From positions 34,217 to 98,216 of IMG/VR virus record IMGVR_UViG_2718218168_000001: a stretch of DNA of 64,000 nt; one strand, given 5' to 3'. The notes under the pieces were generated by a model, which saw only the letters and a list, made by a program, of their open reading frames with translations, made no database searches and was not told the origin of the DNA. This DNA is from a virus (Duplodnaviria; Heunggongvirae; Uroviricota; Caudoviricetes). Made by a program: the position numbers and the translations under genes. Numbering within the stretch: the first letter of the stretch is position 1; each line of letters starts with the position of its first letter. Of the stretch, positions 1,827 to 44,799 are shown in pieces.

Positions 1827-2870
1827 TTATCTAACACTCGACGAATGACTTGTGATAACGCCCACTCCAAGCGCGTAATCAAAGAACAATCGTTGATGCA
1901 TCGCCAACCTACCGTGCGTCTTCTCCCAATTATCGCGGTCACGCTCAATATCACGCTGGCATGACTGGCACAGAGGAATTGCGTAAATGTCATGCGCGCA
2001 TAATCGACTATGACGAACGATATAAGGCGTAATGTGAGCGCCAGCTCCCGCAGCTCCACACCCACAGCATGGACGGGAAGCAACAAAGTCCATGTACTCA
2101 GGTAATTTTAGCGATTGCAGTTTTGGTATTTTGAAATGCGCCATGCCAGGGTCGGAGTCAACATCCACAGGGCATACTTTTGCACGCATCGGCGCGGCGC
2201 GTTCTTCCATCATCTGAACATATGCTGTAGCGCGATCGTCATACGGGCGAATATCCGCCTCTTTCAGAGGTCCGCTATCCTGCGGAGTAGCCTTCATCTT
2301 ATTTATTGATATGCGGCAGACTTCTTCCGGCATCAGGTGCATCATGTTGCGCATGAAAGCCCACCAGCACAGCTCCTGAATACTTAAATCATGGCTATTT
2401 GAAAGGCCCATTTCCTGACGGGCGACATCCAGTATCCAGTTAACGCGATTATTGTGCAGCGTTTCTTTCAGCTCATTAAAACCACGCATCCGATAATGGT
2501 TATCGTGATGCCAGCACAACAACACCGCGCTATTGTCTCGTTCAGCGTGGACAATATGATTGTCACACCAACTACGATCTGCGGCCTGGCATTGACCCTC
2601 TTTCCTACGCAACCACGCCACCAGCGCGTCAATTCCACCAATACGGCGAAACAGTTCATCGCTGTTAAAAAACGGCTGCAACGCCTCATTTGTTGCCATG
2701 GTTTGCTCGGTAACAACGAGGCCGTCTTCCATGTGCTCGATTAACTCACGCGGCACCGGCTCCATAATAAATTTACGGCCAGCCTCCACCAGCTTTCTGA
2801 CCTCCTGATCCACTTTGAACGTGGCGAGGCCAAGCTCTTTCTGTACAAAGGGAGTAATTACGGCTTTCAC
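1827..2870 (-). CDS. hypothetical protein with Cys-rich C-terminus
   Basis: 347-aa ORF; C-terminal CCGCG...C..H...C..C cluster suggests metal binding; true start may be internal. Confidence 0.5.
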
Positions 2871-2897
2871 ATCACACCTTTAATCACTGATTGGGCT

Positions 2898-3077
2898 TTA
2901 TCTGCTGCCCGGCATTCTCTGTTTAAGCACAACCATTTCCTGACGGCATAACACAGCAATAGCGGTCCTGACTCCAATTTGCTTACCAACCAGGTATTGC
3001 TTTACCTTGCGGCGACTCACGCCATCAAGAAGCATCTTTAACGCTTCACGGGACAATTTGTTGTATTTGCGTGCCAT
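2898..3077 (-). CDS. small basic protein, possible DNA-binding
   Basis: about 59 aa from an internal Met (MARKYNKLSREALKMLL...); short and basic. Confidence 0.3.
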   Translation of the reverse strand: MARKYNKLSREALKMLLDGVSRRKVKQYLVGKQIGVRTAIAVLCRQEMVVLKQRMPGSR

Positions 3078-3081
3078 TAAT

Positions 3082-3462
3082 CTACTCCGCAGAACCATAC
3101 AATCTACGTAACGTGGCGGCGACAGAAGATACAGATATCTCGCCAGTCGCAGCCCCTACGGTAAGGTCTGCCAGTTCAGGTGAATCAAATACCTGCACCC
3201 CGTTACGGCGTAGAAATAACAGCGCACTGTTTAGCGCGGTACGCTTATTGGCATCATTGAATATATGCCCTCTCGCCGTAGCCACCAGGTAGGTGGCGGA
3301 GACTTCGAAAAGGTCGGTGATCTCTTCGTAGGCAACTCTGGCCTGAACTCTCCCGATAATGGCCTCTGCCCTACCCGGATCTGACATTCCCGGCAGGCCG
3401 CCGTAGCGGTTTATATTCGCATCATGAAGCGCAATAAGTTCTTCCGGTGATATATGCCTCAT
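3082..3462 (-). CDS. doc: Doc toxin (death on curing; Fic-fold kinase)
   Basis: 126 aa; sequence matches P1 Doc as recalled ([17 protein letters not shown]...[19 protein letters not shown]). Confidence 0.93.
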
Positions 3463-3683
3463 TATCGGTTAACCAGTTCCTTGTTGGTGGAGTCCAGGGT
3501 GTCAAACAGGGATGCAAATTCAGCATCCAGCGCCGCTTTTTTGTAGGTTTCAAAAGTAGCCTTGCTGACAATTACTGCTGGCTCACGGCCTCTGCGGGTG
3601 ATTTCAACCTCTTCCCCTGCTTCAACATTATTGAGCACTTCGCTAAGGTTGCCGCGCGCGGTACGGAAGTTAATGGATTGCAT
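3462..3683 (-). CDS. phd: Phd antitoxin
   Basis: about 73 aa from [45 protein letters not shown]...; its stop overlaps the doc start. Confidence 0.9.
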
Positions 3684-3827
3684 AAACACCTCGTGTACTC
3701 GTTATGTGTACACAATTATAAACTTCACAAGCATAAAGCACCAGCACTTTGCAGCTTAAATCACCGGACAATCGTCAAACTCCCCACTTCGGGCATCATT
3801 GATGAAATGATGTGGTCACACCAAACT

Positions 3828-4292
3828 TTAATCTTCAAGGTCTGCTTCTGATACCACTGTATAACCCAGAAATATTTTAATCTCATCCCACAATCCCATG
3901 ATCTTGCCTTCATACTCTGATGGTTCTCTTACAATTACTGAATCTGGGGGAGAGTGAGCCTCTAATTCAGTTATGATCTCATGGCAAAGATTATGTTTGT
4001 AATATTGTTTTAGTTTCTCTCGAATAGGTTTTGGCGCACTTTCAATAGTTTCTTTTGCGGCATTTAGTGAAAGAATTATATTACTTGCGTCATTAACATC
4101 CCAGTCTGATCCAGCTTTTCCTGTTGCTATTTTATTTGCCCTATCAGCAAAGTTTATCAATGCTTCACTATAAAATTTTTCCTTATCGAATAATCCAAGA
4201 TTTTTACTTGTGCGCAAACTAATAAAAGCAGCTATTGCTGACCCAAATGCCGCAATAGCTGATGCCCAATCGGGATTGATATGAAGAAACAT
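3828..4292 (-). CDS. hypothetical membrane-anchored protein (AT-rich cargo)
   Basis: 154 aa; N-terminal hydrophobic helix (WASAIAAFGSAIAAFISL); locally AT-rich. Confidence 0.5.
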   Translation of the reverse strand: MFLHINPDWASAIAAFGSAIAAFISLRTSKNLGLFDKEKFYSEALINFADRANKIATGKAGSDWDVNDASNIILSLNAAKETIESAPKPIREKLKQYYKHNLCHEIITELEAHSPPDSVIVREPSEYEGKIMGLWDEIKIFLGYTVVSEADLED

Positions 4293-4376
4293 GCTATCTC
4301 TACCTAATGCCAGATCTTTAACCTAGAAATATTGTATCAGTAGTTATGGCTTTGCCACCAGTAATGCGATTTTTTC

Positions 4377-5036
4377 CTAGTTGTCATTGCCCCCTACCAG
4401 CGGCAATAAAGCCCTGGCCATCTTATGAACCAATAGTGCATCAATAATGCCAAGCGTATGCCCCGGGTTAATGTTTAATGCCGCCTCAAGGTGACACCTT
4501 TCCAGGCCACTTTTCTCGGCTTGTTTATGATGGTCTGGCTTAATAACGTCGCCCAAAACACGGCTAATTCTTTCTCGTAATTGCTGGGTGCCAGCACACT
4601 TGATCGCTGTATCGTGGAGACGGTTAACCAGTTCGCGATAAACATGCGGCTTAATGCGGATACGTTCACCGGTGACGCCCTTTCCTGGCCCTGGCACCGA
4701 ACTATCCGGAATATCCGGATAGTTGCCAGCCTCGTAAGCTACCCGCAGCCAGTGCATGAATGTTTCAGTAGACACACAACCACAGTCCACATCGATTTTT
4801 CCGCGTTGCTGTTCCAGCCACTGCTCAAAGTTCAATCTACACGTATTACTTTCATGTTGCTCTTTTTGTCTTAAGGCCAGCACCTGTTGGGCCAGTTCCA
4901 GAACGATACCGGGTGACGCTAACCTCTCAAATTCCAATAAATAGTTTGCGTCAGGATGACAAGTAGCCTCGCCTGCAAAAAATACCAATTGCTGTAAGTA
5001 TGCTGTCGTTAGAGTAGTCATTTCTTTTTGCGCCAT
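4377..5036 (-). CDS. hypothetical protein
   Basis: 219-aa ORF; no motif recognised. Confidence 0.5.
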   Translation of the reverse strand: MAQKEMTTLTTAYLQQLVFFAGEATCHPDANYLLEFERLASPGIVLELAQQVLALRQKEQHESNTCRLNFEQWLEQQRGKIDVDCGCVSTETFMHWLRVAYEAGNYPDIPDSSVPGPGKGVTGERIRIKPHVYRELVNRLHDTAIKCAGTQQLRERISRVLGDVIKPDHHKQAEKSGLERCHLEAALNINPGHTLGIIDALLVHKMARALLPLVGGNDN

Positions 5037-5392
5037 TTCTTTTCACATTCCTTAGTCCATTTTTCAATGTTCATTTTGGCAATATCAGTCATTCCATCAC
5101 CTAAGAAATACTTTTTCCGGTACGTCTTGCACTTAAACCACACTACAACAGCCACCAGCCAGAAAATAAAAGGCCATACAGCAATACCAACTCCAGCCGC
5201 GATAAAGCCCAATAGCCATAAATGAAGCTCTCCAACTTCTGTTTGCGGCAATATTCTTAAAGAATTAAACAGCAGACTGAAGGAATGGTCGTATGCATTG
5301 GCGGTATAAGACATGCAATCCATATAATTAAAGTCATAGCCTGCGGCTGCCGCCCATAATGGGCGGTCAAGAAAATGTTTTAGTGTCATCAT
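5018..5392 (-). CDS. hypothetical membrane protein with Lys-rich tail
   Basis: 124 aa; hydrophobic segment LWLLGFIAAGVGIAVWPFIFWLVAVVVW, then KKWRKKK. Confidence 0.5.
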   Translation of the reverse strand: MMTLKHFLDRPLWAAAAGYDFNYMDCMSYTANAYDHSFSLLFNSLRILPQTEVGELHLWLLGFIAAGVGIAVWPFIFWLVAVVVWFKCKTYRKKYFLGDGMTDIAKMNIEKWTKECEKKWRKKK

Positions 5393-5398
5393 ATAAAT

Positions 5399-5779
5399 TT
5401 AAGGTTCAGACCAGTTATCTTCAATAGCAATGCTTAATCTTTGTAGCCATTCTGCTAATTTCAGCATTGCTTCTCTTTCGCTTAAACCACGAGGAAAATC
5501 ATCAAGCGAAATTGTTGGCTTGAAGCCCCCGTAATTATCCATTTCAACAGTCAGATTTTGCTCCAGCACGGTATTCCTTACGCGGCTATTGTGCCGAAGC
5601 AAATATACTGAACGTGATTTATTGGTTTTATGGTCAAACTGATATTCGGTAAGTATCATCTGGCTTTTGCCATGACTATTACCTCTCCACATACTTACCT
5701 CACTTAATAAAACAACTCCATACGTAGTTGATGATTTTTCCCCACGTAATATAAATATGCACTCCAGCAGAAAAACCAA
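5399..5779 (-). CDS. hypothetical protein
   Basis: ORF-track 126 aa; probable real start at internal Met (MWRGNSHGK..., about 97 aa); AT-rich. Confidence 0.45.
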   Translation of the reverse strand: MVFLLECIFILRGEKSSTTYGVVLLSEVSMWRGNSHGKSQMILTEYQFDHKTNKSRSVYLLRHNSRVRNTVLEQNLTVEMDNYGGFKPTISLDDFPRGLSEREAMLKLAEWLQRLSIAIEDNWSEP

Positions 5780-5870
5780 AACCTACAATTACTGAAAAAA
5801 TCAAAACATTTACTTTTGACATTATAAAATTTCTCTCGTTGCCGTAGGTGATAGCACCATAATTTCTAAT

Positions 5871-6122
5871 TTAGTGAGTTAGCAGTTCCATTTTTTCGAT
5901 GATTTCCGCATGAGCATCATCGTTGTCAACACTTAACTCGTTTAATGCCTCTCGCACTACATCAACTTCTTCTGGTTGGAAGAAGTCATCTCGGTAGTCA
6001 CCAAATAGAACCGAAACAAGCCTGCCACCAGCAACATCAAGATTGGCGCTAACAGGTGGCTCTTTACCATCCTCAAATTCGACTACAAAAGTTAATTTCC
6101 CCATCGTTACCACCAGCGACAA
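5871..6122 (-). CDS. hypothetical small protein
   Basis: 83-aa ORF, co-oriented with neighbours. Confidence 0.4.
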   Translation of the reverse strand: MSLVVTMGKLTFVVEFEDGKEPPVSANLDVAGGRLVSVLFGDYRDDFFQPEEVDVVREALNELSVDNDDAHAEIIEKMELLTH

Positions 6123-6186
6123 ATTGAATACAAACCCAGTGCTGCCGCCATCACAATTCCTACCGTTGCGAATGCTTCAGGCCAGC

Positions 6187-7029
6187 TCATTGACCTGCCT
6201 CCTGGGGAGGTTCTGGTAGCAGCATCCAGAACAAGGCGTTCCCTAACCACGATAAAGTGCCGTCGCTCAACTCCACGTATTCCCCTTGCACCTGTCCTGC
6301 CATATACTCACCGTGCTTTGAATAAATTAAAATCCAATCATCTTGAGCGGGCATTCGCTCACTACAGCTTATCCAACCATCCGGAGTTACCGGATAGTTG
6401 CCATTCACAAGGTCAGCTCGAACATATAGCGTGTCATCATGGTGCTGATTGTGGCTGCACCACGTTAATTCGCTTAACTCGCCATCTTCTGGCCATACTC
6501 CAGCTGTTTGCAGCCAGATATGGGCTGGCGCATCCTGGCAAGGTGTATTAACTGGAAACTTGTAAGTTTGGCTTACAGGTTGGCTACCCTGAAGCATGGC
6601 AGCGTGGCAGGCATACTCAACGCCCTTAACTGCATCTGCGCAGTAGTTATAGCGATTGCATTCCACTAATTTCCGTTTGAGTTTTTCAATTGCCTGCGCG
6701 ACATCAGCCTGTATTACAGGAACTGGCGGAGTGGTATATAGTTTTCGGCATTTGTTTATCCAACCGGCATGGTCAGGCGTGTCTGTAAAGCGCAAATCGT
6801 TTTCGTAGCCCTCACGACTACGTTCTTTCCATTCCGTCCACGGAACACCGCTATTCCAAGTGGGGCGAGTGCAGGACTGATACAGAACAGGTTCAGCTTC
6901 CAGCGCTGCCAGAGCAATCCGTGCCAGTTCTTCCGCTTCTTCTGCTGGCAGTACAACGTTGCTACCAGGTCCGTATGTTTCGCGCCACTGCTTGATTGTC
7001 AGCAGTCGCTCTTTGGTAATAGTGGTCAT
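6187..7029 (-). CDS. DUF551-like phage protein
   Basis: 280 aa; C-terminal WISCSERMPAQDDWILIY-type block typical of DUF551 prophage proteins. Confidence 0.6.
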   Translation of the reverse strand: MTTITKERLLTIKQWRETYGPGSNVVLPAEEAEELARIALAALEAEPVLYQSCTRPTWNSGVPWTEWKERSREGYENDLRFTDTPDHAGWINKCRKLYTTPPVPVIQADVAQAIEKLKRKLVECNRYNYCADAVKGVEYACHAAMLQGSQPVSQTYKFPVNTPCQDAPAHIWLQTAGVWPEDGELSELTWCSHNQHHDDTLYVRADLVNGNYPVTPDGWISCSERMPAQDDWILIYSKHGEYMAGQVQGEYVELSDGTLSWLGNALFWMLLPEPPQEAGQ

Positions 7030-7235
7030 TTGTTAATCCTCAAAACTTTATGCCCGGGCGCAAAAGCACGCGTTTTGTCTTTGCTTATTCGCCAGCCATC
7101 CTTGCGCGCCTCTTTTGCACAACCAGACCATGACGTACCGATATACTCACCGAAGTCTGGCACTGGATATACACCTTCCGTACACTGGCGGCAGTCACAA
7201 TAGAGATGCATGGTGTAACTTGCGGCAATAGCCAT
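7026..7235 (-). CDS. hypothetical Cys-rich small protein
   Basis: ORF 7026..7316; likely start at internal Met (MAIAASYTMHLYCDCRQC...). Confidence 0.35.
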   Translation of the reverse strand: MAIAASYTMHLYCDCRQCTEGVYPVPDFGEYIGTSWSGCAKEARKDGWRISKDKTRAFAPGHKVLRINK

Positions 7236-7236
7236 A

Positions 7237-7998
7237 TCACTCTCCTTTGATGCGAATGCCAGCGGCGCGTGGCACATTAACTTCCACGATGCGCACAGTT
7301 GGTTTGTACATCTCAATCGCTGTCAGCCAGTCAGCGCCGGTCATATGCTTTTCTGCATCGCCATTAGTCCATTGAACCGGCACACCAATAGCTTTCATCG
7401 CAATTTCTATTTCCCCGGCAATGGCGCTTTTCCCGCAACCAGTAAAACCAGAGACAACGACAAGAACTTCGCCTTTGGCTGGTTTTATTTCCCGTGCTTC
7501 CAGTTCTGCAATGCGCTTCTCTGCGGCTTCCAGCTTCTCGCGCATATCGTCAACGTACTCGACCAGAGATCCGCCAGCAGGAATTTCGCACTCCTCGACC
7601 AGTTGGAAGTAGATATCAGCTGCGGCCCGTGTGTTGCTATGCCTGGCGTCGCCTATCTCACCTTCGCGAAGAGCATCGCGTTCGGCGGTAAGATTGGCTA
7701 TTTTGCTGTCTTTGCCTTCCAGCTCAACGCGCAGCCTCCCAACCGTAAGCGCAATATCCTCGTTCTCCTGGTCGCGGCGTTTGATGTATTGCTGGTTTCT
7801 TTCCCGTTCATCCAACAATGCCAGCGCGATATCTGGCGAAAAGTGCTTCATAAAATCGTTAAGCGCATTAATTCGCTGATCGAAAGGCATTACAGGTGCT
7901 TCACCGGCAATTTTTGTTTTTTCAGCGATTTCACGAAGCTTTTGATAATCAATCTGGCTCACTGGTTGCCTCCTTTGCGGAGTTGCGCTTCGATGCAT
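7237..7998 (-). CDS. Ea22-like protein: coiled coil plus P-loop
   Basis: 253 aa; coiled-coil N-terminus and Walker-A-like GFTGCGKS; resembles enterobacterial prophage ead/Ea22 proteins. Confidence 0.6.
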   Translation of the reverse strand: MHRSATPQRRQPVSQIDYQKLREIAEKTKIAGEAPVMPFDQRINALNDFMKHFSPDIALALLDERERNQQYIKRRDQENEDIALTVGRLRVELEGKDSKIANLTAERDALREGEIGDARHSNTRAAADIYFQLVEECEIPAGGSLVEYVDDMREKLEAAEKRIAELEAREIKPAKGEVLVVVSGFTGCGKSAIAGEIEIAMKAIGVPVQWTNGDAEKHMTGADWLTAIEMYKPTVRIVEVNVPRAAGIRIKGE

Positions 7999-8198
7999 GA
8001 AAAAAAAGACTCCCGAGTGTGACAGTTAAGAGCTGGTGCGAACGCCGCGTTAAGAACGGCGGCATCACAGCCGTCATCAATATAGAGCGCAATTTTTTTC
8101 TCCAGGCGCGCTTTGGCTTCCTGCAACTGCATACCCCGGCACGCACGCGGGATATAATCAGCAATTTGAGCGATAGCTTTTTCGTTCTGTTTAAACAT
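7959..8198 (-). CDS. hypothetical small protein
   Basis: 79-aa ORF in operon context. Confidence 0.35.
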   Translation of the reverse strand: MFKQNEKAIAQIADYIPRACRGMQLQEAKARLEKKIALYIDDGCDAAVLNAAFAPALNCHTRESFFSCIEAQLRKGGNQ

Positions 8199-8394
8199 GC
8201 TTCACCTCGATAGGCTTGATGGTGTCTAACAGCAGTCGGCGGCGCGTATTTTCTGCAAAATGGCGGCGTCCGGTATCTTTGTGGTAAAACTCATTTTTGC
8301 CGACGACCCACATCCGCTCTGTTTGGTGCAGTTTTTTTACCTGCGGACCGTCTTTGGTGATCACGGTGCCGGTATGGGTTTTTACGATTGTCAT
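8191..8394 (-). CDS. hypothetical small protein
   Basis: 67-aa ORF, co-oriented. Confidence 0.4.
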   Translation of the reverse strand: MTIVKTHTGTVITKDGPQVKKLHQTERMWVVGKNEFYHKDTGRRHFAENTRRRLLLDTIKPIEVKHV

Positions 8395-8477
8395 GCCACT
8401 ACCTCTTCGAACAGATGAACGAGACAGGCCGATGCTCGTCCACCTGAAAAACTGACGATTTGATGCATACTCACGGT

Positions 8478-9056
8478 TTATTCCTGAATGCGCTTAAACT
8501 CGATTACCCATACCCACGGGTTAGATAGCCAGTTATCCTGCCCGTAAATACTGCGCCAGATATCACCAAAACCAACGCGATAAACAGCTTCCGGCGGCGT
8601 AATTTTGTACATCGCCGGAGATGCGCCTTCTGCTTTAGCATCTGCCTCGCTCATATCACGCAGCCGTTCCACACGCACGTCGGTAATTTCCAGAAGAATG
8701 CGCGATGCCCAGCGCGGCATGTGAATTGATGGCGTCCACTTTTCTGATACTGGTTTATTACAAACCTCGACCGGAACCCGGTGCGTTTGTTCTGTCCAGG
8801 AGTTACGCACGCTTGCGCGATAAACCAGCGTTGCGACGTCCGTCGCTTTGCCATGTACCCGGTAGGTTTCGCGAACCCAAATACGATCGCCCGGTTGACC
8901 ATATGGACAATGCTTAGCAAGCAACTCTGCGGCCACTGCCCGTCCATAGAATTTTTCTTCAACAATCCTGCGAGTCTGTGTTTTATTCCCGCCAAGAATT
9001 GCCCGGACCATCTCATCGTTGAAAATCATGCCGCGCTCTTTCACTTCGCCTTTCAT
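8478..9056 (-). CDS. hypothetical protein, possibly PUA/ASCH-like
   Basis: 192 aa; N-terminal MIFNDEMVRAILGGNKTQTRR motif; RBS taagggggatgcATG. Confidence 0.55.
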   Translation of the reverse strand: MKGEVKERGMIFNDEMVRAILGGNKTQTRRIVEEKFYGRAVAAELLAKHCPYGQPGDRIWVRETYRVHGKATDVATLVYRASVRNSWTEQTHRVPVEVCNKPVSEKWTPSIHMPRWASRILLEITDVRVERLRDMSEADAKAEGASPAMYKITPPEAVYRVGFGDIWRSIYGQDNWLSNPWVWVIEFKRIQE

Positions 9057-9063
9057 GCATCCC

Positions 9064-9153
9064 CCTTACCCATGCGCGACGATGCCGCCAAAAGTGATAG
9101 AGAACAGCCAGAAATAGATCGCGGCCATAATGATTTTGAATGCCGTGTTCATA
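9064..9153 (-). CDS. small hydrophobic peptide (29 aa)
   Basis: MNTAFKIIMAAIYFWLFSITFGGIVAHG; RBS caggagctgaaaatATG; not in the ORF track (under 60 aa). Confidence 0.3.
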
Positions 9154-9234
9154 TTTTCAGCTCCTGTGATTGATTGGATACATGCCGCGCCTTGCGGCAT
9201 GTTTTTATTTTCACTTTCCCTGTTTTAAAAATCA

Positions 9235-9251
9235 AGATTTATTAGAGCAAC
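9235..9251. promoter_or_regulatory. C1 operator-like 17-mer (15/17)
   Basis: agatttattagagcaac upstream of the minus-strand genes at 8478-9153. Confidence 0.5.
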
Positions 9252-9757
9252 TATTGTTGATGAAGAAGCGCATTTTCATACTCCCTGACCATTAACGTAA
9301 GCACGCCGTGCCTCCTGAAAACACGCGCCACTTCAATCTTATCTTCCAGCGCGAACGCGATTTTACTTAGACCAATTTTCTTAAGGAGATCAATCTTTGC
9401 TGGGCCGTCATTTCTGTCATCGGTGGCAGGACGCATAGATAGCAAAGGCTCAGCCCCGTTTGTTACGTACTTCCGCAGCCAGACTCGTGTTTTATCCCTT
9501 GCGATCTCACAGCGCCCGGTTACAAACCAGACCGTGTAAACGTTAAATAACTGGCGCACCATATCAATAACTGGAGTGATGGGAGTATCGGTGTCACAGG
9601 CGAGATTAAACTCGTTCCAGTCCTTTGTTAATGCACCTTTACCTAGTGGCGGAAGCAAATGCAGTCTGTCTTCAGTTGCCTCTGATATTGTTCCATCAAT
9701 ATCGACTATGACGATATACGGACGTTCCTGGTGTGCGTGTTTATTGAAAATACTCAA
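9251..9757 (-). CDS. HAD-superfamily phosphatase-like protein
   Basis: 168 aa; HAD motif I IVIVDIDGTI near the N-terminus. Confidence 0.6.
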   Translation of the reverse strand: MSIFNKHAHQERPYIVIVDIDGTISEATEDRLHLLPPLGKGALTKDWNEFNLACDTDTPITPVIDMVRQLFNVYTVWFVTGRCEIARDKTRVWLRKYVTNGAEPLLSMRPATDDRNDGPAKIDLLKKIGLSKIAFALEDKIEVARVFRRHGVLTLMVREYENALLHQQ

Positions 9758-9830
9758 ATGCCCTCCTCATTGGACGAAAAAAAATGCTGGTAGGCGCACT
9801 CCACCAGCATTAAAAGTGACACTGTAACTA

Positions 9831-34170: not shown

Positions 34171-34310
34171 GTGCCCTCCTTGTAACTCTCAATCGTGCAA
34201 AATGAACCAAACATGCAGAGAATGCTATGTACAAGCATCTGTGCATACATTATTATTTTATGCAGCATTTTTAATTAAATTCAAAAATACAGCATAAAGG
34301 ATGGCTTTCG

Positions 34311-41560: not shown

Positions 41561-42070
41561 ATGGGGCACAATAACACTAAGGGAAACCGTAAATTTATTA
41601 AGGGCCGCTATACTGCCAACGCGGCCAAAGGCGAACGACTGGTATCTTCTGAATTCCAGCTCACTTTTGCAGGCCATGAAGATATCAGCGTACTGGTTCG
41701 CACGTCGCAAATTCCTGAAATGACCCGCGAGGATGTGGAGGACTATGGTCCGAATGGTGTGAAGTTCAACCAGCACGGTCCAATCCGTAACTCCGGGGAA
41801 ATCCAGGTCCAGTGCGTGGAGACTATCGAAGGCGATATTCTTCAGTTCATTAAAGATCGCATTGCGGCGAAGGACTATGTTGATATCACGATGGCTGCGA
41901 CCCCTGAATCCAAATCTTCCGGGGTTAACGCTGTGACAAAAGCTGCTACAACAATTGAAATGTTGGACTGCAAAATCTACAGTGATGCAATCGACTTTAG
42001 TACCGAAGATGTGACTGCCGCTGTGCGTCCGTCACTTCGTATCGTTTACAACTGGATTGAGTGGGATTAA
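41561..42070 (+). CDS. putative tail tube or tail protein
   Basis: 169 aa, followed by a terminator hairpin. Confidence 0.45.
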   Translation: MGHNNTKGNRKFIKGRYTANAAKGERLVSSEFQLTFAGHEDISVLVRTSQIPEMTREDVEDYGPNGVKFNQHGPIRNSGEIQVQCVETIEGDILQFIKDRIAAKDYVDITMAATPESKSSGVNAVTKAATTIEMLDCKIYSDAIDFSTEDVTAAVRPSLRIVYNWIEWD

Positions 42071-42153
42071 GAGTCACCCCTTGTATTTTAAAGCTCCTAC
42101 GGGAGCTTTTTTGTGCTTAAATTATGCCGGTATAGCGAAATTTTGAGCATATT

Positions 42154-42450
42154 ATGGAAATTGATTTTTCATACTCTCCTGAAACGATAGAACGAAGATT
42201 CGAAATAATTGGATGCAAAACTATTTCAGAGGAGCATTATTGGATTCTCTATGATGCCAATACATGGTTATGTGCCTTAGCAGAATGTCGGCCATCGTTA
42301 TGTGCAGGGGAGGGAGGACTTCGACATAAGGTGCTGGCTACACTTGAAGTGAACACGTTACGATATTGGTGTGTCGAAATACTTAGGGATAACAAAGAAT
42401 TACATTTATTATTGCTGAATAAGTGTGCGCCTCTGCGCAGGAAAGCATAA
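42154..42450 (+). CDS. hypothetical small Cys-containing protein (AT-rich cargo)
   Basis: 98 aa; AT-rich; convergent with the DUF3800-like operon. Confidence 0.4.
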   Translation: MEIDFSYSPETIERRFEIIGCKTISEEHYWILYDANTWLCALAECRPSLCAGEGGLRHKVLATLEVNTLRYWCVEILRDNKELHLLLLNKCAPLRRKA

Positions 42451-42578
42451 GAAAACCCAACCGCCATACTGGAATTATCAGAAGAATATGTGCGGAAAGT
42501 TATAGCTAGCTATTGAAAAGCTAAAGTAGATCGGTTAGATTTACCTTACTCATCTACCATGCGTAGAAAGAGCGATCG

Positions 42579-42618
42579 AACCCGATACATAGCAATATGT
42601 GTCGGGTTCAGCTTTTTT
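42579..42618. terminator. bidirectional intrinsic terminator
   Basis: aacccgatacatagcaatatgtgtcgggtt then cagctttttt. Confidence 0.5.
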
Positions 42619-43096
42619 ATGTCCCAAGTGCTCTTTTTCTGCTTTGTTTGAGTGTTCTGATTTTACTGTCATAGGTTACAACATAGGCTGTTTTGAGAAG
42701 CCAATAGTCTCTACGTGCGGATAGCACAACAACGTAGTTTTCACACTCGTTCCAGATTACCCACTCTTCAGTTGGTCCTCGTCTTTCAGACCAACATGAT
42801 ATATCGCAATGGTCATAATTCCTTATCATATGCGCGATCCAGCGGATCCGCTTACACCGTTCAAGATCAGGTATTCGTTCTTCTTCTATTTTTCCCTCTG
42901 ATACTAAATGCCAAAATCCGAACTCTTTCCCATCATATTCCGGTGAATAACGTAATCGAACAGGGAGACCCTTAAACGTTATATTAGAGATTAAAATATC
43001 TTCTCTAACAACATCATATACATCGTCTATATACTCTTGCCAACTTCCATTGAAGTACAATAAATCTGGCATTTGAAGCATCAGCGAGCCTCCCAC
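42617..43096 (-). CDS. hypothetical protein, partner of the DUF3800-like gene
   Basis: about 155-159 aa; start overlaps the stop of the upstream gene; AT-rich. Confidence 0.5.
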   Translation of the reverse strand: MGGSLMLQMPDLLYFNGSWQEYIDDVYDVVREDILISNITFKGLPVRLRYSPEYDGKEFGFWHLVSEGKIEEERIPDLERCKRIRWIAHMIRNYDHCDISCWSERRGPTEEWVIWNECENYVVVLSARRDYWLLKTAYVVTYDSKIRTLKQSRKRALGT

Positions 43097-43785
43097 ACGA
43101 AAATATTAAATTTACTTTCTGTTGGAAGAGTGCTTTTTAGTAACTCCCTGTTTGTATGTGATTTTATCCTGTTTATGACTTGGATTTTTCCCGCGTTGCT
43201 ATTCATTCCTCGATGAACGTAGCCTAACGCACCAATGAAAAGATCCGTTAGCTGCAATTGTTGCACTTCATGAGATCGTATATGTTGAATTCTGTTTATC
43301 GACTCATGATTGTAATCATAGCGATCATTGTGAAGAACTCCTCTTAATTTCTCAATTTTTTCAATACCTAAAGTATCTTTTATATCTAGGTAGATATTGT
43401 ATGTGTTGTTACTTTCTATTATGTTTTTTAAGACATAAAAAAACATCTTATAATAGAAAGTATTGTGATCTTGATGGAATCGAGCATGGTCCAGTTGCTC
43501 TTTATCAGGAACAACAACACCTCTAAAGCGCAATGCTGGGTTGCTGAAGAAGTAATCTACGACCTCTAAGTAAAATTCAACTTTGGACGCAGATACTTTA
43601 GTCCACTTGATTTCGAAATCAGGTTTTAAATTGTGTTTTAATTTTAATCCCTTGATGTCTCTAGCAATTTTTTTTGTGATAGTGCCAGGACACCAAAGCG
43701 CACCCAATACCATGACTTTATTATGATCATTTAGTAGGTGACAGGATTCATCGCAGAATACATTAAATGTTCTTCGGTTCAACAT
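43081..43785 (-). CDS. DUF3800-like protein
   Basis: 234 aa; N-terminal FNVFCDESCH resembles the DUF3800 signature; very AT-rich. Confidence 0.5.
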   Translation of the reverse strand: MLNRRTFNVFCDESCHLLNDHNKVMVLGALWCPGTITKKIARDIKGLKLKHNLKPDFEIKWTKVSASKVEFYLEVVDYFFSNPALRFRGVVVPDKEQLDHARFHQDHNTFYYKMFFYVLKNIIESNNTYNIYLDIKDTLGIEKIEKLRGVLHNDRYDYNHESINRIQHIRSHEVQQLQLTDLFIGALGYVHRGMNSNAGKIQVINRIKSHTNRELLKSTLPTESKFNIFVWEAR

Positions 43786-43953
43786 GTTAACTCCACTTAT
43801 TGTTAGGTAGAATTGTCCGTTAGTTGTTTATTAATTGCAATAATGGGACGTTCTGATTTGCTAACTACGTCATCTTACCAGGACGCCTATGAGTTTTCCT
43901 CATGGCAAACTAGAGGTGTTGAAAGTATGCATGGTTATAATTAGAGCAATCTA

Positions 43954-44799
43954 TCACCCTCTGAATCCTACCGGTATACCCCATTGTTCGTTATCTTTAT
44001 TTTTGGCTAATACCGCATTAAGTGCTTCGTTTACCGTCATGCAATGCGGTAGATTATCGAAGTTTGATATCCAGCCAATATCAGGAGAACGCTTGTTCTT
44101 CAGGTAAGCATATTTCCGCGCTGCCGCCTCTACTTTCTGCTTGAACTCATGTTTTTGAGCGCGTTTTTTGGATAACCGCAGATTGTCAGCCTTTGCTTTT
44201 GCCTCAGCGATCCATGAAGTCAGTTTTTTGAGGCTGGTCGTTCCGGTACCGCCGGAAACTGATCTTTTTGTTTTTTTAATTTGTGACTTCTTATTCTTTA
44301 TTGCCACGTCATCCTGACAGGGGGAGGGGGTATCATTTTGACATGGGGGTGTGGATAAAAAATTAAATAAAGCCAATGTCTTAGCGAGAACAGCTTTAAC
44401 CTTGGTTGCCGCTGAAGAGATCTTTAATTTGCTTTCAATCAGCGCATTTTTGGCTTGTTGTGCGAAGGCCAAAAAGGATGGTGTAAACCGGTACAGGTTA
44501 GCGCGACGTTCACGGTGATCGCCGATAACAATCTCTACAGACAGAATTCCTTTGTTTACAGCTTCACGGAATGCACGAACGACGGTTGATTGGCTATAAC
44601 CAGTTTCTGCCGCGATCAGGCGGTGAGGCTTGTGAATGAAGTATTCACTGGTTGTTGCCGCGAGATTTGCACATTGCGACAGGATATGCCCGGCGCTACG
44701 GGATAGACCGGAGTGTGTTACAAAGCAGGCCAATTCATAGCCAGAAAAAGTAAAATCGCTCATCGTTATACAGCTCAGGAAAGTGACTTTAGCCAGCAT
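43954..44799 (-). CDS. repL: lytic replication protein RepL
   Basis: 281 aa; downstream of the kilA-like gene under a C1 operator, as in the P1 lytic replicon. Confidence 0.75.
   Translation of the reverse strand: MLAKVTFLSCITMSDFTFSGYELACFVTHSGLSRSAGHILSQCANLAATTSEYFIHKPHRLIAAETGYSQSTVVRAFREAVNKGILSVEIVIGDHRERRANLYRFTPSFLAFAQQAKNALIESKLKISSAATKVKAVLAKTLALFNFLSTPPCQNDTPSPCQDDVAIKNKKSQIKKTKRSVSGGTGTTSLKKLTSWIAEAKAKADNLRLSKKRAQKHEFKQKVEAAARKYAYLKNKRSPDIGWISNFDNLPHCMTVNEALNAVLAKNKDNEQWGIPVGFRG

Follow-up and report, generated by a model that had tools for sequence, protein, structure and literature searches.

The DNA analysed here, referred to as the window, is a stretch of 64,000 nucleotides of the Caudoviricetes record IMGVR_UViG_2718218168_000001 in IMG/VR (positions 34,217 to 98,216 of that record), and the locus under study is a block of small genes at positions 3690-5870 of the window, next to the phd-doc module. 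Over positions 3000-7100 the window was 100% identical to the Escherichia coli plasmid pB19429_2 (NZ_CP142921.1, 98.8 kb) and in parts 96-98% identical to phage P1, RCS47, SJ46, D6 and hundreds of P1-like plasmids; it is a P1-like phage-plasmid. In PLSDB, 1407 records matched, some of them perhaps only as other carriers of phd-doc. A previous description made from the letters and the open reading frames (ORFs) without database searches, called here the sequence-only reading, had presented the block as an AT-rich accessory island of membrane and unfamiliar proteins. The ORFs described there were all found at their places on the minus strand in the ORF list, and phd-doc (3082-3683) and a DUF551 gene flank the block as claimed. 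These ORFs, named A to E together with an ORF of 40 amino acids (aa), are listed with the other features of the region in Table 1.

Table 1 Features at and around the block, numbered from the first nucleotide of the window
Feature	Positions	Strand	Remarks
Replacement cassette	3826-4395		570 bp; GC 0.370, 1.6th percentile; only gene A inside
humD 3' remnant	3757-3825	minus	69 nt, ~22 codons, frameshifted by a 1-nt insertion (translations and alignment)
Common piece	4396-6104		PmgU-like protein, membrane protein, 97-aa protein, 40-aa hydrophobic peptide, acidic 77-aa protein
Gene A	3828-4292	minus	154 aa
Gene B	4377-5036	minus	219 aa
Gene C	5018-5392	minus	124 aa
Gene D	5399-5692	minus	97 aa (126 aa from an upstream TTG)
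40-aa ORF	5700-5822	minus	Hydrophobic
Gene E	5871-6104	minus	77 aa; just beyond the end given for the block in the sequence-only reading
Extended -10 promoter-like site	4331-4358	minus	Upstream of A; GTGGCA, 16 nt, TACAAT, TG before the -10; consensus match only
C1-operator-like site (GTTGCTCTAATAAATCT)	9235-9251	minus	At the OpmgT/Op88 position next to pap, at the head of the gene run 9056-3828
pacA	7-1200	minus	
lpa	1286-1738	minus	
pdcB	1827-2870	minus	Followed by pdcA
doc	3082-3462	minus	ORF list and RefSeq annotation; conserved low-coordinate flank of the block
phd	3462-3683	minus	ORF list and RefSeq annotation
DUF551 gene	6187-7029	minus	Followed by a 69-aa gene
Ea22-like gene	7237-7998	minus	Followed by three further small genes
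pap	9251-9757	minus	ORF list, RefSeq annotation

According to the P1 annotation, P1 carries humD-lxr-hot-upfO/N/M-pmgV/U/T at the position of the block. The block itself sits between phd-doc and pap-pmgS, both conserved in the P1-like backbone, as judged from the gene order relative to P1 and from the homology over 3001-3825 (pdcA, doc and phd, 97% identical to P1) and 8965-9800. Homology of the backbone to P1, pCP013030, RCS47 and SJ46 was found by blastn to end at 3825 and to restart at 4396. These breakpoints (3825/3826 and 4395/4396) delimit the 570-bp cassette with gene A alone, which stands in place of ~2.4 kb comprising most of humD, lxr, hot, upfO/N/M, pmgV and the last codons of the pmgU-like gene. 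On one side, the humD stub directly adjoins the TAA stop codon of gene A and lies between A and the phd promoter region. On the other side, position 4396 falls five codons before the end of the pmgU-like gene, and because of this junction the last residues of B are altered, ending in LPLVGGNDN here and in LPLVDAGDTSEGEV in P1.

Seven A-bearing loci, among them an E. albertii plasmid, a plasmid typed as IncY and three IMG/VR contigs, were gaplessly colinear with the window over 3600-4600, were 97.8-100% identical to it and had the same junctions, which points to one event of origin. One recombination event put the cassette in place of the ~2.4 kb, and the elements that carry it form a humD-less and hot-less lineage of P1-like elements from which lxr, upfO/N/M and pmgV were lost as well. 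At the ends of the cassette, only short matches at chance level were found when repeats indicative of site-specific recombination or transposition were sought. Similarly, among the E. coli genomes no match at the DNA level to a donor of the cassette was found outside P1-like plasmids. Over the phd-proximal 226 bp (3600-3825), A-bearing and humD-bearing P1-like elements were 93-94% identical, compared with ~97% over the whole of 3001-3825, and this lower identity indicates that the A-bearing elements have a distinct haplotype upstream of phd.

The frequency of each piece was determined in 5426 complete E. coli genomes, counting a segment at ≥80% coverage. The pacA-lpa segment, used as the marker of a P1-like element, was found in 549 of the 5426 genomes, and the B-C-D segment in 236, that is, in ~43% of the E. 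coli genomes with a P1-like element. The A cassette was found in nine genomes (~1.6% of those with a P1-like element), always at ≥99% identity and on plasmids of ~95-100 kb. These frequencies show that B to E are a common variant and that A alone is rare. Accordingly, the view of the block as one island had to be given up: only 3826-4395 is a rare cassette, whereas B to E are common and 95-99% identical. The block consists of two pieces of different history rather than of a single acquired island, and B, C, D, the 40-aa ORF and E are a common variant of the P1-like accessory set.

That the interval is accessory and variable was confirmed, since the gene content of P1 differs here and the full arrangement was present in only 7 of 1149 matching PLSDB plasmids. 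P1, RCS47, SJ46, pCP013030, pKFu022_2 and the E. albertii plasmid all differ in gene content at this position. For example, pKFu022_2 (NZ_CP091679.1) encodes at 2116-3868 of its extracted locus (L072) a "DNA-binding protein" and a 174-aa Toprim-domain protein at the position of lxr and hot in P1; this cargo indicates further turnover in the same slot and is possibly a nuclease-type module.

The description of the block as AT-rich held for the block as a whole (GC 41.1% over 3690-5870 and 47.2% over the window, which ranks the block at the 2.7th percentile among all stretches of its length, 2181 bp) but not evenly for its genes: B (48%) is at the window average, and the other values were 36% for A, 40.5% for C, 40% for D, 30% for the 40-aa ORF and 43% for E. 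The block is the second-lowest 2-kb GC stretch of the window. The lowest one (~42000-44100, GC 0.378 over 2 kb) encodes hypothetical proteins, a DUF3892 protein and a ParA-family gene in the identical plasmid, and is probably another variable region of the P1-like backbone.

The remark that none of the proteins belonged to a recognised family was borne out for Pfam, NCBIfam and PADLOC, in which scans of A to E gave nothing above noise; neither A to E nor the 40-aa ORF matched a PADLOC-DB 2.0 model, even at E values up to 1. It had to be revised for PHROG, in which every ORF matched a family of unknown function with E values of 1e-21 to 1e-77 (A, 1779; B, 21459; C, 2638; D, 1258; 40-aa ORF, 5525; E, 3876). 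Searches of Protein Data Bank sequences, made with A as a profile and with B, C, D and E, gave no relatives, and the family scans gave no match to a structural-protein family among the block proteins. No specific biochemical activity can be assigned to the genes of the block.

Residues 116-214 of B aligned to P1 PmgU (gp096) with 88% identity, and residues 102-217 matched phrog_21459 with an E value of 1.5e-76, which makes B a member of the PmgU family by sequence. B shares this domain with PmgU, itself a protein without known function, and differs from it in the last five residues and in an extra variable N-terminal part of ~110 aa, in place of which SJ46 has a different, longer one. The hydropathy analysis agreed with the membrane location claimed for C, which is strongly hydrophobic at residues 53-89 (Kyte-Doolittle 2.38) and then has a Lys-rich C-terminal tail; for A, for which the same claim had been made, the N-terminal helix is only borderline (1.49). 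Homologues of C with 31-41% identity were found in phages of Yersinia, Klebsiella, Proteus and Morganella. D is soluble and has DNA matches of 65-67% identity in phiKO2, Mulock and Salmonella phages, and a homologue of 56% identity was found in the nin region of a lambdoid contig (L022), ~0.8 kb upstream of a homologue of A.

The 40-aa ORF has a hydropathy of 1.96 with a hydrophobic core of 21 residues, and its reading frame is uninterrupted in homologues as distant as 67.5% aa identity (E. albertii plasmid), the changes being conservative. Both SJ46 and the E. albertii plasmid have it annotated, but the gene table of pB19429_2 lacks it. In size and form this small hydrophobic peptide resembles a type I toxin or a small membrane regulator; its ORF, however, is arranged in series with the operon genes, 7 nt ahead of D, and an Rfam scan of 3000-9600 at E values up to 1 gave no small RNA or antitoxin RNA there, with only a sub-threshold GcvB match elsewhere. 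E is strongly acidic (19 Asp and Glu against 6 Lys and Arg in 77 aa). C and the 40-aa peptide would be small membrane proteins and E a small acidic protein.

Gene A encodes an N-terminal hydrophobic helix rich in Ala, Gly and Ser, a helical domain of ~110 aa and an acidic C-terminus (DLED), and it matched phrog_1779 with an E value of 1.5e-62. A word-indexed homologue search from A alone returned only its own 97%-identical cluster, and a phage collection held only two relatives at the protein level (33-35% identity). A full HMMER scan of 1.84 billion cluster representatives gave 21 relatives at E values up to 0.001, which were 28-41% identical to A when its own cluster was set aside; a profile search added a few more, all of them "hypothetical" and without a Pfam domain. 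Most members are 153-174 aa long; W64 is invariant throughout, several other positions are nearly so, and the C-terminus usually carries an acidic D-L-x-D. The N-terminal helix, likewise hydrophobic and rich in Ala, Gly and Ser across the family, reaches 1.6-2.6 on the Kyte-Doolittle scale in nearly all full-length homologues. An AlphaFold2 model of A built with 31 sequences was all-helical (pLDDT 72, pTM 0.69) and gave no informative fold match; the model from the single sequence was unusable (pLDDT 43). A would be a helical protein that is anchored in the inner membrane and faces the cytoplasm.

The genomic loci of the A relatives were searched in IMG/VR with a 6-sequence subset of the 21-sequence alignment, which as a whole was too divergent. 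Relatives were encoded in 62 contigs, 3 of them P1-like and 59 lambdoid prophages. In the lambdoid contigs the gene lies in the nin region, after an antirepressor-like gene (Bro-N/P22_AR_C) and before ninB/ybcN or before a homologue of DNA polymerase III theta and DUF1367, and it is co-directional with the replication genes and Q. The slot upstream of it holds PD-lambda-1 in 12 lambdoid contigs and in phage PhiR26_1 (PADLOC E 1.9e-198); in other lambdoid contigs it holds either what we take, from our own reading of the sequences, to be an EmrE-like gene with a serine recombinase, or unknown cargo. Three homologues of A had no PADLOC match, and PD-lambda-1, serving as positive control, scored the E value just given. 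In L013-L017, L023, L024 and L068 the gene directly after the A homologue is the theta homologue (Pfam DNA_pol3_theta, E 3.9e-35), and P1 hot, also a theta homologue, is among the genes displaced by the A cassette. A lambdoid version of 169 aa was present in 178 of the 5426 E. coli genomes, always annotated as "hypothetical protein". In 14 loci the homologues had a GC of 0.38-0.43 against 0.47-0.56 for their flanks; not counted among these are the loci of the 169-aa E. coli group and L067, a cut locus, in which the GC of the gene is similar to that of its flanks. A belongs to a small orphan family that, outside P1-like elements, is found in the lambdoid nin region.

Beyond the block, the DUF551, phrog_926 and Ea22-like genes (6187-8400) are of the lambdoid ea type, with weak P-loop-like matches in the C-terminus of the Ea22-like protein. 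The segment 6587-7100, at the DUF551 end of the sequence searched, was 98% identical to Stx-converting phages, which suggests a recent exchange between P1-like plasmids and Stx or lambdoid prophages. The DUF551 gene is an intact 280-aa ORF in the window with an end-to-end match to phrog_60, while the gene table of pB19429_2 has only a DUF551 coding sequence of 136 aa (6187-6597) and is empty over 6598-7025, likely a difference in start site or annotation. NZ_CP142921.1 and several relatives were typed as "IncHI1B" in PLSDB (MOB-suite), while P1-like elements are IncY or p0111 in the literature, so that this typing looks like a label artefact.

The P1 annotation places two promoters, P1pmgT and P2pmgT, ahead of the genes from pmgT to humD; both overlap OpmgT (Op88), the C1 operator beside pap. 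Ten C1-operator-like sites were found in the window against 0.31 expected, one of them at this position, and 8965-9800 was 95.8% identical to the PpmgT region of P1. Between 9056 and 3828 every gene is on the minus strand, and neighbours are no more than ~85 bp apart. A single terminator-like site was found on that strand in 3400-9400, a weak one within B. From the single strand, the tight packing and the C1-operator-like site upstream we infer an early C1-repressed operon. The block genes would be co-transcribed from PpmgT as part of this non-essential operon, which would read on towards phd-doc, and they are probably early, non-essential accessory genes; standing behind a C1 operator, they would probably be silent in a lysogen. 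The -22 boxes of the P1 late promoters LPpac and LPhot had no exact match in 1300-41000, and the only late-box site near the block is the LPpac counterpart (1254-1246).

Upstream of A a promoter-like site of the extended -10 type was also noted. Such sites numbered seven in the region against 9.3 expected by chance in shuffled sequence, and this one is therefore not evidence on its own. Promoter scans of two lambdoid A loci were not above chance and gave nothing consistent, and neither a terminator nor a stable hairpin was found downstream of A (z-score +1.05).

It has been reported that the pmgT-humD segment of P1-like phage-plasmids is variable (PMC9603915; PMC6906374), that recombination hot spots occur at the boundaries of average-GC and AT-rich loci in P1-like plasmids (PMC6906374), that pmgU-pap is replaced in one P1-like element (PMC6906374) and that the P1 genes in the variable segment are non-essential (PMC10695390). 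The block agrees with these reports in lying between phd and pap, in varying in content among otherwise conserved P1-like elements and in its low G+C, a feature reported earlier for variable regions. The sequence-only reading was largely right in what it observed, and its proposal of a variable accessory locus was right yet already published. What sets the block apart from the region as known is its particular content, the single-gene A cassette set directly against the remnant of humD in a background that lacks humD, lxr, hot, the upf genes and pmgV. No description of this arrangement was found in the searchable literature, in which the RefSeq accessions of A to E and "phrog_1779" occur in no paper.

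Morons in the sense of Hendrix, as well as the nin and exo-xis/ea genes of lambda, are accessory genes of a comparable kind. Like them, the block genes are small and probably dispensable, have no function by annotation, differ in composition from their flanks and are shuffled between phages by recombination; both A and D have relatives in the nin regions of lambdoid phages, and the neighbouring DUF551 and Ea22-like genes are of the ea type. The A cassette resembles a moron in its distinct composition. It differs from one in that it replaces ~2.4 kb, in that its flanks (the humD stub and the 3' end of the pmgU-like gene) do not lie side by side in relatives, in that it has no terminator-like site, and in that its promoter is a consensus match of a type not above chance.

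We favour, with a probability of roughly 0.7, the reading that the interval is a composite stretch within the hypervariable pmgT-humD segment already known, made up of mosaic, early and dispensable accessory genes, into which the rare A cassette was placed. The PmgU-like, DUF551, Ea22-like, A and D families would be of the lambdoid ea/nin type and would be exchanged with lambdoid phages, and the block genes most likely have a dispensable role in modulating the host or competing elements, shortly after infection or derepression. Several points weigh against this reading. The operon on which it builds is drawn from synteny with P1 and from consensus scans; the promoter-like site upstream of A, if active, could let a lysogen express A; A and its homologues have a lower GC than their flanks in most loci, which is typical of independently expressed morons; and a modulation of host or competitor is generic and context-based, with no domain, fold or motif behind a particular activity.

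A rival possibility, which we consider rather unlikely, is that the block carries anti-defence or host-takeover genes acting early in lytic growth; E could, for example, inhibit a nuclease or restriction system of the host, and A could use its acidic tail to sequester a host factor at the membrane. The position in a probable C1-repressed early operon, the occurrence of the families among the early (nin region) genes of lambdoid phages, and the non-essential and variable nature of the set, usual for counter-defence genes, are all consistent with it, as are the 19 acidic against 6 basic residues in the 77 aa of E and the acidic C-terminal D-L-x-D kept in the A family. Acidity alone is a weak predictor, however, and the membrane proteins C and the 40-aa peptide fit poorly. 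Furthermore, the general scans gave no homology to a known anti-defence protein, no dedicated anti-defence library having been searched.

The hydrophobic segments in A, C and the 40-aa ORF also bring to mind a defence or superinfection-exclusion locus, in which A and/or C, perhaps with the 40-aa peptide, would be membrane proteins of the resident phage-plasmid that keep out the DNA of competing phages or abort their infection. Superinfection-exclusion membrane proteins include SieA of P22, Imm of T4, gp15 of HK97 and Sim of P1, and by hydropathy some of the block proteins may lie in the inner membrane (C strong at 2.38, 40-aa ORF 1.96, A borderline at 1.49 with homologues at 1.6-2.6). Moreover, A is the one gene of a low-GC cassette and is preceded by a promoter-like site, recombination has a hot spot in the P1 segment, and by guilt by association the A homologues lie in a variable nin slot that also holds PD-lambda-1 in sister prophages. 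Nevertheless this explanation seems unlikely. A to E and three A homologues have no PADLOC match, no fold match to known exclusion or abortive-infection (Abi) proteins was obtained, and promoter-like sites are no commoner than chance. The genes stand behind a C1 operator and are probably silent in a lysogen, and the lambdoid A family is on the same strand as the genes from O-P-ren to Q, which in lambda we take to be the early rightward lytic transcript and not a divergent unit expressed in lysogeny. The slot also holds cargo that is not defensive, namely the theta homologue (by Pfam) and, by our own reading, the EmrE-like gene and the recombinase, which makes sharing the slot a weak argument for defence.

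With prophage-encoded defence hotspots such as the lambdoid PD-lambda-1 slot and the P2/P4 hotspots (PMC9122126), the block shares a variable slot between conserved flanks in a temperate element, and A relatives occur within a few genes of PD-lambda-1 in the lambdoid slot. However, the block proteins match no defence model, and the P1-like slot usually holds SOS and replication accessory genes (humD, hot) rather than defence systems. Nothing found here shows that the block is a defence island, as the sequence-only reading had hinted. A bolder form of the idea, which we hold to be quite improbable, is that the A family (~165 aa, with an Ala/Gly-rich anchor at the N-terminus, a helical bundle containing the invariant Trp, and the acidic D-L-x-D tail) is a new single-gene inner-membrane module in inter-phage conflict, acting in exclusion, abortive infection or counter-defence. 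It would move between two unrelated hot spots, the lambdoid nin slot next to PD-lambda-1 and the phd-proximal slot of P1, where its gain would have been traded for humD and hot, accessory genes of SOS mutagenesis and replication.

It is very improbable that an illegitimate recombination deleted humD-pmgV and left the A cassette as a neutral by-product, gene A having no function in this plasmid. Its rarity (9 of 5426 genomes), its single origin, the broken humD stub left behind and the ends without repeats would all suit such an accident. On the other hand, every carrier has an intact A ORF (97-100% aa identity), and the carriers differ elsewhere, come from both E. coli and E. albertii and have two replicon typings. 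In addition, the family keeps its length, N-terminal helix, W64 and acidic tail at 27-41% identity, which indicates purifying selection. A role in virion assembly, implied by the P1 names pmgT/U/V ("putative morphogenetic function"), by the 88% identity between P1 PmgU and the C-terminal half of B and by the annotation of the RCS47 homologue as "putative morphogenetic protein", is hardly credible, as pmgT, pmgU and pmgV are non-essential by CRISPR interference, many P1-like elements are viable with the entire segment exchanged, the block has no exact late-promoter box and none of its proteins matches a structural-protein family.

On the favoured reading of a composite accessory segment, the block is one more cargo variant in a published hot spot of P1-like elements, and as it stands it matters little. 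The by-products are the exact breakpoints, the humD-less and hot-less lineage, the delimited orphan family A, common to lambdoid prophages and P1-like plasmids, and a conserved 40-aa membrane ORF outside the gene table. As a candidate for phage challenge, the A family is reasonable, though of low priority. A phage-resistance or counter-defence phenotype of A or C, if there were one, would make the phd-proximal slot of P1-like plasmids, present in ~10% of complete E. coli genomes, a cheap place to mine for such genes.

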